A stretch of 64,000 nucleotides of DNA, taken from positions 1,184,001 to 1,248,000 of the forward strand of contig OY969763.1 in assembly GCA_963702845.1 (NCBI GenBank). Direction: 5' to 3'. Positions 42,001 to 48,000 of the stretch are shown in pieces. Origin of the DNA: an uncultured Verrucomicrobiae bacterium. Lineage in GTDB: Bacteria; Verrucomicrobiota; Verrucomicrobiia; Limisphaerales; Palsa-1400. Made by a program: the position numbers. How positions within the stretch are numbered: position 1 is the stretch's first letter; the number at the start of each line of letters is the position of its first letter.

Positions 42001-45000
42001 GCGCGTCCGTCCGGCTCGTTGTCGAAGGCAAAATAATCCAACCATGGCCGATAATGATCCCAGACATACTTCGCCGTTTCACCTGCGTCCGCAGCGTGCA
42101 GTGAGAAAATCACTTTCACATCCGTTGCCTTCGCAAACGCAAACAAGGCATCGATCTCATCGTGAGTCAGATTCGGCGTTTCACTTTTCGCTGAGCCCGT
42201 CGCGCCGAGCCGCACATGTCTGATCCCCGCGTTACGGAATAAAGTCACCAATTGTTTGTTTTCCTTCGAAAATAAAAATCCTTTCATCCCGCGATGGTCC
42301 CGAACCTGCCCGCGTGTAAAAATGCTCACTCCGGAAAAATGCGGGTCAATCGCGTAGCCGCGTTTTTGAGTATCCACTGTCACCGAAATCGGCACCTGCC
42401 CATTCAAGGCAATTGCGCTCAAACCCATCACGAACAGAACACTTAACCAGGACTTCATCCCGCGTCTTTACCATCTGCGGATTCGACATGCTATCTTATT
42501 TCGAAATCGCTAAAAGCCATTCGGCTGACGCCCTACCGAATGAGGGACCTACGAAGAGATGACCGAAGAAAGTTCGGCTAAGCGTCCGTCGCTTGTAATG
42601 CGAACGATGCAAAAATCAGCGCGTTGGCCAACGGCAATTTCTTTTTGCAAATCCATGAACTTCGAAGGTGCTTCGGCGGCGCGTTTCCAGGTTTCCTGCC
42701 ACGGCACATCCAGCATCTCCGCGGCACGAAAGACGCCGTCGATCGGGCGGAGCGCTGAACCCGCGAAATTTGTTTTGCCGGGTAATCGCACGACCTGGTC
42801 CTCACCCACTTCGAGTTCCATTGCGCCGAGTTTGTATTTGCCCGGTCCAGCGCCAGCGGCTGACATCGCGTCAGTCGTGTAGAAAATTTTGTCCAAGGTC
42901 CGATGCACCAATCGGAACAGCGTTGGTGACACGTGAATCTTATCGGGAATCAAACTGACTGTAAGTTCTGGTCGTTCGAAGATGCGCCAAAGAATGTTGT
43001 CGTGTCGGTCGAGGTCGCGAGGGCAACCGTTGCCGAGATGAGTGAAGCCCGTCGCGCCCGCGTCCACCGCTTGTTTGATTAATTCTGCTGAGGCGTTCGT
43101 GTGTCCCAAGCTGACTTTTGCGCCGCGCGACGCCGCGTACTTTATCGCACCAATGGCTCCGTTGCGCTCGGGAGAAATAGTGAGCAAAAGAGGATCGCCA
43201 GCTGCGATGTCGCATAGTTCGTCGATCGCGTGCGGAGTTGGATCGAGCATCAACGCAGGGTCGTGAGCGCCGTGGAACCCGGGCGCGCTCGACATAAAAG
43301 GTCCTTCAATTTGCCAGCCGGCAATCGCCGAACGAAGCTCGTTGGATTCGTCGCGGAGCTGTTTCGCGCGGCGAAATCGCGCCGTGAGCTTTTTCCAATC
43401 CGCCGTAATGAGCGTCAGGAAAAACTTTCCACAACCGTGTTCGCGAAGCTTCCGCGCAGCGAGCAGGAGGTCATCCGCCGTGAAGTCGTCCCGCTGAAAA
43501 TCGATCCCGCCGTAGCCGTTGATTTGCACGTCAAACAACGACGGCGCGATCCATAAAGAATCAGCGGGAGCATTGCTGCTCCCGCTGGTCAGATCTTCAA
43601 TTTTTGTAACGACCCCATTTTTCCAGGTGACACGCACCGGCTTGCGCGATGCGTAATGCCACGCTGCAATTTCGCCATCGTTCATTATTTGCGCAGCTTA
43701 GTAGTGCCAGGTCAATGCGAGCACGACGGCGTGGGTGAACAATTTGTCGGTGCGCACCTGCAAGCTGTTCTCTTTCCAGTCGTGGCTGGTTGTGCCGAGG
43801 AATTTGTATCCGAGCGCGACATGTGCATTATCGCAAAGTTTGTAGCGCAAGCCACCAAACGCCTGATAAGCGAAGGTGAAATCTGTGTCACTCAATTTGC
43901 CGGAAGGAAACTGCGCGTCGAACATCGCGGCTTCACCGCCTGCGCCAACTCCAAGGTATGGTGACAAACATTTTTCCGGACAGATTTTGTAAACGACGTT
44001 CAGCAAAAGCGGAATCTGGTAAAGGTCACCCTTGCCGCTTTCGTAGGTTTCTTCCGTAGCTGGTGGGGGCGGAGGAACAACATTACCCACCCGTTTCATG
44101 TGGTTCCAAATCACGCCGGTCTGCAATTGCAGGCCGAGATTCTCATTCAGCATCAATCCCCAGGTGAGGTCGGCGCGCACACCAGGATTGAAATGCGCTT
44201 TTTGACCTTCCGTATCCTTAAGTGTCTCGCCTTGCACAAACGAGGCGCCGGCATCAACACCGAAGTAGGATTTTGTAAAGTCGAGTGCCTGAACATTTAC
44301 AGTCGCCAAAATCGCGGCTCCTGCAATTACCGATTTGAAAATGGTGGTTTTGCTCATAGGGCGCAACTATCGTACGCTTGCGTTGAGTTGACAAGGTGCT
44401 TTTTTTGGAACCTTCGATCGAACCTGTGGACTGGTGGCGTGAATCGGTTTCCTTCTGCAACACGCATAAATAAATATTGACAGGTTTTTCACTACATACT
44501 ATTAGCAGTGTTTGCTGCGGGTGCATACTACAAGGCAAGGTGTAGCTGCGGCGACCGTTAATGAAAAGGAAGGCCGATGGGCAGTTAAATTTGCTTCCGC
44601 TTGTTCCACAGCAGGCTGAATCTGAGCTTGTAGCTAAGTTGAACCCGGGCACGGCGCAACCGGAGTCGAAACCCGAACAGAGCCTGGTTCTCGTCGTCAA
44701 ACGCGACGGCACTTCCGAACCATTCAACAAAACGCGGATAACCCTCGCTCTCGAAAGCGCTTTTAAAGCCGTCCGCGATATTCCGGTAGACACAGCAATG
44801 ACGGATTCGATGATGGAATCCGTCACAAATCTTGCCGAGAAAATTTCCAAACGCGTTCTTGAAGACACTGCTCAAGGAACGACGCTCGATGTTGAATACA
44901 TTCAGGACGTTGTCGAAAACCAGTTGATGTGCGACGGCTATCTCACTGAGGCGCGCCGCTACATTCTCTATCGCGAAGATCGGCGCAAAATCCGCGAACA

Positions 45001-48000
45001 AACGCCAAGCGCACTTCCAGAAGCACCGGCCGCACCCGTTGAAGAAACGCCTAACACAAATTTATTGCTGAAGGTGATTTATGCGGAAGCGCTTCCTGAC
45101 GCTTCGTCTGCAAATGACCTTGCGGCAAGTCTCCGTCGCAATTTCAGCTACGCGATTCAGGATGCGGTTCACAACGACCAACTATCGCCGGAATTGCTGA
45201 TGTTCGATTTAGAACATCTTTCCAGTGCATTGCAGTTGGATCGGGACCGATTGATTTCTCGGGCGGGGGTTGAATGGCTTTACGCAAACTGTCTTGCGCG
45301 TGAGTGCGACCATTCTATCGAAACGCCGCAGTATTTCTGGATGCGCGTGGCGATGGCTATGGCCGCCAGCGAGGACGACCGGGAAGCGCGTGCGCTGGAG
45401 TTTTATGAAGTCCTGTCCACGTTGCGGTTTTTACCATCGGAAAAACTTCTTCGGACCAGCGGCCGTTCCAGCGCGATCGCCAATCGGATGCTGGCCGACG
45501 TTGAGGACTTCGATGCTTCTGCTCGTGTGGCTGGCCATGTAAATATCGCGGCGCACATCCAGAACGGGACGCTCGATGAATTGCTGCTCTATGGAACCAT
45601 TTCGAGCGCGGTCCGCTTGCTCGATAACGCGGTGGAGTTAGCCGGCGCGAAGTTGAATGCCGCAGCTATTCACGCGCGCGAATACCGCGACATTGCGCTC
45701 GGTATCGTCGGGTACGAAAAAGCGCTGGAGTCACTCAATATTTCTGCCGATACCGATGCAGCGATGAATTACGTCGAACGCGCCGCGGAAAGCATCGCGT
45801 ATTACACAACGCTCGCGTCCGCCACTCTGGCTGCTGAGCGCGGTTCTTTCCCGGGACATTCCGATTCGAATTGGAACATCGGTGCACTACCATTTGAATC
45901 GTTGAAACTTTTGCCCGCGCAAAGCGGCGGTTCACCCAACGTGAATTTCTCAAAGGAATGGCTGGCAGTGCGTGCTGCCGTGCGGCAGTACGGAATGCGA
46001 AATGGCCACATCCTTGCGCTCACGCCTGCGCAAGTGATCGAAAAAATAATCAGCGATGCCGCACCGCGTTTATCATTCAGCGCGCAACTCAATCGCCTCG
46101 TGCGCTGTCGCAAGTGGATTGATGGCAGGGTGTGGATCACGTTGCCCGAAGACCTTGCCGGTCCCGACCTGGAGCAGGCCTATTTGCTGGCTCAACAGCT
46201 CGGCATTCGTCCGTTTACGTTGCCGGTTCGTGTCACGATTTCAGAACCATTCACCGACGCTGCCGCTGCGACGAAGGTTCTGAAGAGCATTGAAAGATCT
46301 TCGTAAGCTATTGCGCGATTGTCATCAGCGCGTGCTCTCGTTCCAGCAACGTGGGATGCGAGTAATAGAAGCCACTGTAATACGGATGCGGCGTCAGGTT
46401 GCTGAGATTTTTTTCGTTCAACTTGCGTATGGCGCCGATCAACGATCGCACTTCAGACATCACGCCTGCCGCGTAGGCGTCGGCCTCATACTCGTACTTT
46501 CGCGAGAACATGTGGGACATCGGCGAAATCCAAAACGTCACTGTTCCCGCAAGCAATCCGAACAATAGAAACGCCGGCACGACACTCAACGTCGAAAATC
46601 CAAACGCTTGATAAAACCATGCCTGCTTGGCCAGGACAGAGATGATAAAAAAACCAATCAACGTCGCGACTGCCGACCAAATCATCGTCTTGGGAATGTG
46701 ACGTTTTTTGTAATGGCCGATTTCGTGGGCCAGAACGGCTTCCAGTTCGGTTGGCTGTAGTTGCTCCACCAGCGTGTCAAATAGAACAATTTTCCGGAAA
46801 TGACCGAACCCGGTGAAAAACGCGTTAGAATGGCGCGATCGTTTGCTGCCGTCCATCACTTGAATGTCTTTGGCCCTGAAACCCGCGCGTTCACCCAATC
46901 CCAGCAACTGCTCCCGCAACGGCCCTTCTGGTAACGGAGAAAACTTGTTGAACAGCGGCATGATCACGATCGGCGCGAGAACGAGCATGATGAGTTGAAA
47001 CACCATCATGCAACCCCACGCCCATAACCACCACCAGTCACCCAACCAATCGACCAGTTTGAAAATCAACCAAAGCAGCGGAAACCCAATGGTGATGCCG
47101 AGCAACAAACCTTTGATGCGATCCATCCAGAACGTTTTCGTAGTCGTCGTGTTGAACCCGAACCGCTGCTCCAAATTAAACTGTGAATACCAGTCAAACG
47201 GCAGGTCAGGCACGGTGAGTAAAATACTGGTTGCCACAACAAATGCCGCGCCGGCCCACATTGCATGGCCAAGCGAATTCTGAAACACGTTGTAAAACCA
47301 GGGGAGAACGCCACTGAACAAGACAAGCGCCAACACGATCACGCTCCACGTGAGTTCAACGCAGTGGAACTTACTTTTCGCGAGTGTGTAGTCGACGGAC
47401 TTTCTGTAATTCTCCGTCGTGACGACGGCTTTGAATGCTTCGGGCACCGCCGCGGCATTCGCGCGGACATGTTTTTGATTGAGAAGTTCCAGCCAGAGCT
47501 GCGCGAGCCAACGCGCGCCGAGCAGCACGGCGAATATGATCATTACAGTCACAGGGAAACCCTACACCGGATCGTGTTACCTGTTACTCCGTCCCGCGCC
47601 TTTTCGTTCGGGGCGCTTTCGTCCACGCAACTCTTCCTGGCTTGCCTCGCGTGCAATTTGGAAATCCACCTGCTTTTTGAAGCTATCGACCTTGAAAACC
47701 TGCACCACGACTTTGTCGCCAAGCTTGATCACGCGACGCGTTCGCCGTCCGACCAGATGATTTCGAGCGGAGTCGAACACAAAGAAGTCATCGTGCATGG
47801 AAGATAGGTGCACCAACCCACTCATGCCGAGATCGGTAACATCCACGAAGAAACCAAAGTTTCGCACGTCGGTGACGAGCGCCTGATATTTGTGCAGCGG
47901 CCCGTCTTTCAACTGCGCCTTCAAAAACGCGAACATCTTCACGTCTTTGCTGTCTCGCTCGGCGTCGGCAGAGTTGCGTTCGGTTTCCGAGATGTGATCG

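Follow-up and report, generated by a model that had tools for sequence, protein, structure and literature searches.

The window, a 64,000-nucleotide stretch of an uncultured Verrucomicrobiae genome, carries a gene derived from nrdA, which encodes the alpha subunit of class Ia ribonucleotide reductase (RNR). The survey's finding had described it as an open gene whose protein lacks the catalytic motifs, and our analysis bears this out; the gene, its domains and its upstream elements are listed in Table 1. The product, P0001, descends from the NrdAz subclass and has an RNR fold. Pfam recognises an ATP-cone at residues 44–142 and an RNR all-alpha domain at 233–303, and only positions 230–395 of the 523-position barrel model are matched. 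The closest solved structure is P. aeruginosa NrdA (5im3), whose residues 32–139 align to the cone of P0001 and whose residues 365–603 are missing from it. An AlphaFold2 model (mean pLDDT 74) shows the RNR fold, compares to yeast Rnr1 with a VIA Z of 29.4 and an rmsd of 3.3 over 365 residues, and predicts, at low confidence, a helix at residues 567–578. A single-sequence fold of the G016 copy reached a pLDDT of 40, too low for use. A second, degenerate cone ahead of the all-alpha domain has been deleted from P0001, the linker stands for the first half-barrel, specificity site, dimer helices and finger loop, and residues 321–552 are without the redox cysteine, the phosphate-binding loop and the tyrosine pair. 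The linker deletion is identical in G014 and G015, and the C-terminal segment is common to G014, G015, P0022, P0033 and P0120. An assembly artefact was ruled out because the deletions are shared by G014, G015, P0022 and P0033.

Table 1. Features of the pseudo-NrdA locus, in window coordinates
Feature	Position	Strand	Basis and remarks
-35-like hexamer	44477..44482	+	visible in sequence; TTGAC element at same spacing in 20/20 family copies
NrdR-type box 1	44496..44511	+	overlaps -10-like hexamer (44500-44505); T11 not kept in source genome
NrdR-type box 2	44528..44543	+	32 nt downstream of box 1; source-genome copy degenerate
Pseudo-NrdA gene P0001	44561..46306	+	open frame, 581 aa, 0 stops
ATP cone of two-dATP type, aa 44-145, including cone-cone contact residues	44690..44995	+	Pfam PF03477; omega 0.099
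All-alpha domain, aa 168-303	45062..45469	+	domain search and alignment; omega 0.167
Short linker, aa 304-320	45470..45520	+	replaces ~230 residues; pLDDT <50
Second half-barrel and shortened tail, aa 321-552	45521..46216	+	omega 0.136 and 0.155
Genus-specific C-terminal segment	46217..46303	+	replaces cysteine-bearing tail

P0001 has neither the radical motif nor either redox cysteine, and the tyrosine pair and C-terminal cysteines are absent as well. The finger loop with the radical cysteine is deleted, and the full radical motif was found in none of the 20 family copies, its Asn being kept in 0, its Cys in 4 and its Glu in 1. We take the Asn and Glu to have roles in this finger-loop motif. 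Across 18 finger-loop positions, 26% of residues are kept in the 20 dead copies; the role of the radical cysteine in RNR is set out in an excerpt of PMC9531940. The tyrosine pair and the C-terminal cysteine pair are present in 0/20 family copies versus 20/20 order-level intact copies. Since the first redox cysteine is kept in 10 of the 20 family copies, the second in 13 and the radical cysteine in four, the earlier claim that motif loss is family-wide stands for the full radical motif and the tyrosine pair, and does not stand for these cysteines. In each of the 20 family copies, L047 residues ~392–430, which presumably form the specificity site and the dimer interface, are either missing or cannot be aligned. 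In its chemistry, its specificity site and its want of NrdB, P0001 departs from an active class Ia RNR alpha subunit (NrdAz). An alternative radical subunit was ruled out, given that the alpha chain itself has no radical site. A new enzyme, for instance one with thiol-disulfide activity on the remaining cysteines, is highly improbable: both redox-cysteine positions are indeed kept in 10/20 copies, yet the source genome and its genus have neither, no copy retains the substrate phosphate loops, and the dead clade shows no new invariant residue of catalytic type.

A search for nrdB with PF00268 gave no match in the source genome (89.8% complete) or in any of the 31 family genomes (completeness 90% or more in 18), and its control matched in 8/14. 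The source genome has an intact B12-dependent reductase, NrdJ, which scores above the NCBIfam cut-off and has no cone, and it is this enzyme that does the chemistry. With nrdB absent and almost no NrdD, the family genomes would depend on B12 for DNA synthesis. An NrdR-type cone match was observed in 31/31 family genomes. Copies of the NrdA-derived gene were found in 20 of the 31; all are catalytically dead and form one clade, while no homolog was found in the other 11, of which 7 are at least 90% complete. Each of the five genera that have several copies is recovered in the gene tree, and the dead copies were inherited by vertical descent. They range from near-full-length to half-barrel, the least eroded of them retaining the degenerate second cone. 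Nineteen of the 20 frames are open, the exception being a one-base frameshift in the G021 copy; in the G005 copy most of the cone is deleted in frame, with frame and promoter kept. The absence of nrdB, the B12-dependent reductase and the open frames kept, with differing deletions, in much of the family all agree with the survey. A class-wide search matched 212 of 401 genomes, dead and intact copies counted together. A cluster of 73 Verrucomicrobiota members at 0.92 in the ESM Atlas, which may be the dead clade itself, gave no functional lead. No neighbour gene is conserved beyond the genus or small groups, so no partner is indicated.

The ATP cone is kept in detail. Residues D116, E119, M123, R132, I135, L136, R138 and R145 of P0001 are spaced like the named L. 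blandensis residues, the nucleotide and contact residues of that cone being given in an excerpt of PMC5794259. The residues that mark a two-dATP cone and the surface by which it contacts itself persist in 17–19 of the 20 copies, and 23 cone positions that are nearly invariant in live enzymes are 92% kept in the dead ones. By its residues in helices 3 and 4, the P0001 cone is of the two-dATP type, and dATP binding and oligomerisation are predicted for P0001.

Under a codon model, omega in the cone was 0.099 in dead versus 0.106 in live enzymes, and in the body 0.136–0.172 versus 0.033–0.078; the live set comprises no more than 8 sequences, and distant pairs are close to saturation in dS. Selection on the cone is equal to that in live enzymes, and selection on the body is weaker. 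The dN/dS values of the survey were reproduced, at 0.12 for G000–G015 and 0.46–0.47 for the two closest pairs. The high values of the latter come from the body (0.53), while the cone, at 0.17–0.22, is at the level of NrdJ in the same pairs (0.17–0.22). In a neutral simulation run at four observed distances, 0/400 pairs remained free of stops at any of them. By its frame and its omega, the gene is not a decaying pseudogene. The doubts that the survey had attached to close-pair values of 0.42 and 0.45 and to slow decay are largely answered by the split between body and cone, the simulation and the tree-wide omega of 0.10–0.17, and its description of a pseudoenzyme under purifying selection with a retained cone is supported.

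These results bear on two other explanations. The gene could be a slowly decaying relic, useless since the loss of nrdB, whose frames stay open only through selection against toxic truncated products. Long branches, stepwise deletions, patchy losses, one frameshifted and one cone-less copy, and the omega of 0.53 that the closest pairs show outside the cone would all fit; a relic leaves unexplained, however, the invariance of the cone among copies that are 34–37% identical, the neutral survival of 0/400 and the operator bases kept in unalignable spacers (see below), and deletion of the promoter would have been an easier way out. We consider it quite unlikely. It is also unlikely, if less so, that the folded body has the main job, as a scaffold or binding surface apart from nucleotide sensing, with the cone secondary. 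Many different parts of the body, up to half the barrel, have been lost without harm to the rest, the residues kept there are general RNR core motifs, and the cone alone is free of relaxation, which has to be set against an omega of 0.14–0.17 in all body regions, the lack of any cone-only version among the 20 family copies, and the G005 body, constrained though its cone is gone (omega 0.17–0.20 in the second half-barrel).

A promoter with tandem NrdR-type boxes is kept in all copies, from which NrdR control is predicted. A generic sigma-70 scan did not list this promoter because its -10 element has no final T. Boxes were assessed as two 16-bp elements 31–32 nt apart with C4, A6, T11 and G13 (key positions from PMC13584703). 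In box 1, C4, A6 and G13 are kept in 20/20 copies, and the overlap with the -10 element can raise its score; box 2 keeps all four bases in 19/20 copies, the exception being the source genome, which has 3 of 4 and a short insertion relative to G015. Both boxes of the source genome are weak and without T11, and 4/4 key bases occur at 5 of its 803 comparable sites. The operator bases are kept within otherwise unalignable spacers. No cobalamin riboswitch was matched in the 20 dead loci versus 12/20 intact loci of the order, and the leaders measured 43–75 nt in 18/20 copies; riboswitch loss in the dead clade is only presumed, since 8/20 intact loci also had no match. The NrdR-type boxes, together with the presence of NrdR in 31/31 family genomes and in G228, might suggest a dATP sink or a direct NrdR partner that tunes the NrdR feedback loop. 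This is improbable on both counts: a micromolar protein could scarcely buffer a dATP pool larger than itself, and the cones of NrdR are of a different class and pair through their own helix-loop-helix (PMC9110341).

The reading that we favour, with modest confidence, is that a class Ia NrdA, deprived of its radical subunit and of its chemistry, survives as a non-catalytic switch, gated by ATP/dATP, that helps to control the supply of DNA precursors. The cone would bind two ATP or dATP, and a dATP-loaded cone would pair with a second one, as happens in P. aeruginosa NrdA; with no dimer helices left, the result would be a switch from monomer to dimer, with the body as a scaffold passing the signal to a partner. 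NrdR would couple expression to dNTP demand, and without a riboswitch the protein would be made when B12 is available and NrdJ active. As to the partner, another replication-linked protein already bound by live NrdA is a possible if doubtful guess, and the cone-less NrdJ a guess that is unlikely to be right. NrdJ columns did not co-vary with gene presence across 18 genomes with and 10 without the gene (observed 0.60, reached by 19% of shuffles). A complex prediction of NrdJ 45–790 with P0001 40–290, the barrel half being left out, returned a score of 0.00 (mark 0.32) and counts neither way. A broader version, in which dead NrdA is a free-standing allosteric subunit that lends an ATP/dATP on-off switch in trans to NrdJ or the replication machinery, such regulators arising repeatedly whenever NrdAz loses its radical subunit, is rather doubtful. 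The 11 genomes without the gene, the cone loss in G005, the frameshift in G021, the weak boxes of the source genome, the NrdJ columns that do not follow the gene, the want of conserved neighbours and, in G228, the NrdD with its own cone and the lack of NrdJ or box are points against a switch.

Dead, cone-keeping NrdA arose at least twice. The second, independent origin, G228, shows the same pattern of lost chemistry and kept cone; this genome has NrdR and an NrdD with its own cone, and searches of it found neither a match to NrdJ nor an NrdR box upstream of the dead gene. The conserved promoter with its boxes, the absent riboswitch, the common loss of the specificity/dimer segment and this second origin add to the account given by the survey. 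The like outcome in a clade that spans the family and in one or more lineages of independent origin suggests that this NrdA type has a second job outside catalysis, and the natural series from near-full-length to half-barrel copies separates activity regulation from catalysis. Our literature search returned no description of a dead RNR large subunit in bacteria. The four dead copies tested all scored over the curated TIGR02506 cut-off, and several are named RNR alpha chains in databases, which is of consequence for annotation.

Among known systems, the class Ia NrdA of P. aeruginosa (NrdAz subclass, PDB 5im3) is the best match to P0001 in sequence and fold, and like P0001 has an N-terminal two-dATP cone with self-contact helices; the least eroded family copies share its degenerate second cone as well. 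Unlike it, the family copies have no radical motif, tyrosine pair, C-terminal cysteines, specificity site, dimer helices or NrdB, and in the genus of P0001 half the barrel is gone. The curated bacterial family NF005401 / PRK06948, "ribonucleotide reductase-like protein", is by name RNR-like rather than RNR; membership of P0001 was rejected at 47.2 bits against a cut-off of 906 (the source genome NrdJ scores 137 bits). NrdR resembles P0001 in being non-catalytic and in having a cone, and putatively also in sensing ATP and dATP through it and in belonging to the same regulon, but P0001 has no zinc ribbon or DNA-binding domain and its cone is of a different class. An excerpt of PMC8431809 describes the betaherpesvirus R1 homologs MCMV M45 and HCMV UL45 as inactive large subunits retained after loss of the small subunit and reused. 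This likeness is one of analogy: M45 and UL45 are viral and target host cell-death signalling, with a RHIM in M45, whereas P0001 is a cellular protein descended from bacterial NrdAz, with an ATP cone and an RNR-type operator. The NrdB-fused cones of Leeuwenhoekiella blandensis and Facklamia ignava, which according to part of PMC5794259 control RNR from a non-catalytic polypeptide, are of the same type as the P0001 cone and offer a precedent for an RNR regulated by something other than its catalytic chain, although they ride on an essential subunit and the P0001 cone rides on a dead chain.

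The pseudo-NrdA gene of the studied genome (G000) is solitary, with a divergent outer-membrane barrel gene on one side and a convergent M48 peptidase gene on the other. Pfam matches in its product, P0001, comprise the ATP cone (residues 44–142), the RNR all-alpha domain (233–303), and the barrel only in part (325–496); each NCBIfam RNR model scores far below its own cut-off. Among solved structures, the closest relative is NrdA of P. aeruginosa, in which the alignment skips from residue 365 to 603, and an AlphaFold2 model built from a 19-row alignment has the RNR fold with a mean pLDDT of 74. 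Titled records among the closest homologs are nearly all from Verrucomicrobiota, one being titled Limisphaerales and one assigned to another phylum. Some core genes of G000 were observed as short or oddly started frames, which suggests indel errors in this single-contig assembly; P0001 is unaffected.

Table. Positions of the gene, its C-terminal segment, and associated observations
Feature	Position	Strand	Remark
Pseudo-NrdA gene (P0001)	window 44561-46306	+	ORF open for 581 codons
C-terminal segment of P0001	window 46217-46303		conserved in its genus only
Third ATP cone	G000:C1:1353865-1355385	-	joined to a uridine-kinase-like domain; apparently frameshifted
Second best tandem NrdR-type site	G000:C1:2054989
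Third best tandem NrdR-type site	G000:C1:1905548		no clear adjoining gene
Seventh best tandem NrdR-type site	G000:C1:4179793
Short or oddly started core genes (examples)	C1:2055082, C1:4180084, C1:554282
Weak second cobalamin riboswitch match	L168:4113-4338; L172:4213-4421		directly after intact nrdA; barely above gathering score

Catalysis is dead in the family pseudo-NrdA: the radical motif, the tyrosine pair, and the C-terminal cysteines were found in 0 of the 20 family copies. By column, the Asn, Cys, and Glu of the radical motif are retained in 0, 4, and 1 copies, the first and second redox cysteines in 10 and 13 (the first presumably sited on the first barrel strand), and the second tyrosine in 0, compared with 38/38 live enzymes at the same columns. 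The segment around residues 392–430 of the intact relative L047, which we take to be the specificity site and dimer helices, is missing from all 20, while the remaining deletions vary by lineage. Relative to L047, the deletions in P0001 comprise the second cone, residues about 357–586 and about 781–848, and the cysteine tail. Because the finger loop is the joint connecting both halves of the ten-stranded RNR barrel, as described in passages of PMC9531940, the whole first half has been lost in the genus of P0001. A half-barrel homodimer is possible for this genus, to which the C-terminal segment is confined.

Since NrdB was found in 0 of the 31 family genomes and NrdD in only 1, DNA synthesis in the family would depend on B12. 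G000 itself, in which neither NrdB nor NrdD was found, carries an NrdJ of 1043 aa that is intact and has no cone. Across the family, a barrel match was observed in 30/31 genomes and an NrdR-type cone in 31/31, and all 28 NrdJ loci fetched have the radical motif. Weak cone matches resembling the uridine-kinase-fused cone of G000 occur in G014, G004, G005, G006, and G007. In the order outside the family, NrdA matched in 40 of 200 sampled genomes (one of the 40 being a family member), and 20/20 loci fetched from these matches were intact.

The cone of the dead copies is under selection. Pairwise dN/dS was below 0.5 in 14/14 dead pairs tried, with 0.12 (interval 0.08–0.17) for G000–G015 at a dS of 1.6, near saturation. 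Values for the two closest pairs were 0.47 and 0.46 over the whole gene, 0.22 and 0.17 over the cone, and 0.53 over the rest; NrdJ in the same pairs gave 0.17 and 0.22. In tree codon models (live n = 8; G005 excluded from the cone set, three copies from the middle, and one from the tail), omega in dead versus live sequences was 0.099 versus 0.106 for the cone, 0.167 versus 0.078 for the alpha domain, 0.172 versus 0.033 for the middle, 0.136 versus 0.050 for the second half-barrel, and 0.155 versus 0.047 for the tail; selection on the body is therefore relaxed by a factor of two to five, with no relaxation in the cone. NrdJ omega was 0.068. Neutral substitution simulated at four observed distances yielded 0/400 stop-free pairs at each. 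Passages of PMC5794259 place cone–cone contacts in L. blandensis at residues 73, 76, 80, 89, 92, 93, and 95 and residue 102 at a dATP phosphate, and assign P. aeruginosa NrdA the same cone type, of which self-interaction is a speciality according to part of PMC9110341. P0001 residues D116, E119, M123, R132, I135, L136, R138, and R145 have spacing equal to these, and all eight are retained in 17–19 of the 20 copies.

Judging by upstream sequence, the predicted NrdR-type operator is also kept in the dead copies. In all 20, a TTGAC element is followed by one box that overlaps the -10 and, 31–32 nt further on, by a second. A matrix whose training set consisted solely of 25 boxes from upstream of nrdJ gives the nrdJ site rank 1 and the nrdR site rank 4 in G000, and finds its best pair at the pseudo-NrdA promoter in 20/20 copies (shifted by one box in G006). 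Using key bases from passages of PMC13584703, box 2 is complete in 19/20 copies, which are kin and not 19 independent tests, with G000 the weak case; only 5/803 comparable G000 sites are complete. The same layout lies about 180–550 nt upstream in 13/19 intact loci. Cobalamin riboswitches were identified at 12/20 intact loci and 4/5 further ones, and at none of the dead loci, whose leaders are too short to hold one. A 6S RNA immediately follows the dead gene on the same strand in 4/20 copies (L119, L122, L123, L124). The genes downstream of the second and seventh best tandem sites in G000 are, as we take them from sequence motifs, smc-like and gyrB-like, hinting that NrdR may also control chromosome genes.

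The 20 copies form one clade in a 60-row tree (SH-aLRT 100), with long branches; the stem of the P0001 genus measures 1.44 changes per site, and the tool warned that the long branches of G009 and this genus meet. All five genera with several copies were recovered, as expected under vertical descent with scattered losses. Among the best 150 matches of a clade profile searched against 1.84 billion representatives were 8 more members, full or nearly full when inspected in alignment, and another 15 proteins whose finger loop is degenerate and which lack the tyrosine pair and cysteine tail. These 15 keep the cone and the dimer helices; one, P0089, retains part of the radical motif. Retention in dead proteins was 80–92% for the cone versus 26–36% for the finger loop. 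One group nests within intact Opitutae-type enzymes, and the hypothesis that 13 dead rows share one origin was rejected (p-AU 3.75e-07); the grouping of the rest with the family clade may be long-branch attraction. Only one of these proteins had genome context (L261, in the 1.3-Mb assembly G228), where NrdD and NrdR are present and nrdB and NrdJ gave no match. A screen of 242 locus rows classed 207 as intact, 20 as partial, and 15 as dead, with nrdB inside 0/15 dead loci. P0006, dead and full length, is still 60% identical to L047 and represents an early stage of the loss.

We infer that the pseudo-NrdA cone would bind ATP or dATP and pair with another cone on dATP; with the dimer helices absent, pairing would act as a monomer–dimer switch, which the body would present to a partner. 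Expression would track demand for dNTPs and would have ceased to respond to B12 starvation. As a candidate partner, NrdJ is favored by its missing cone and shared regulon, and disfavored by the lack of co-variation with pseudo-NrdA and its absence from G228. Counted against a switch are the 11 genomes without the gene, the cone-less G005 copy, and the frameshifted G021 copy, with its downstream frame intact. A non-catalytic partner role already present in live NrdAz would best explain the repeated outcome; a role of this kind is known for RNR alpha of mammals.

P0001 is a real bacterial pseudoenzyme. The open-licence literature searched yielded no description of a dead bacterial NrdA; one may be mentioned in RNR database papers or their tables. 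The known analogue is betaherpesvirus R1, retained without R2 according to passages of PMC8431809; the bacterial dead NrdA is a new variant, with a sharply testable property in the predicted nucleotide binding of its cone.
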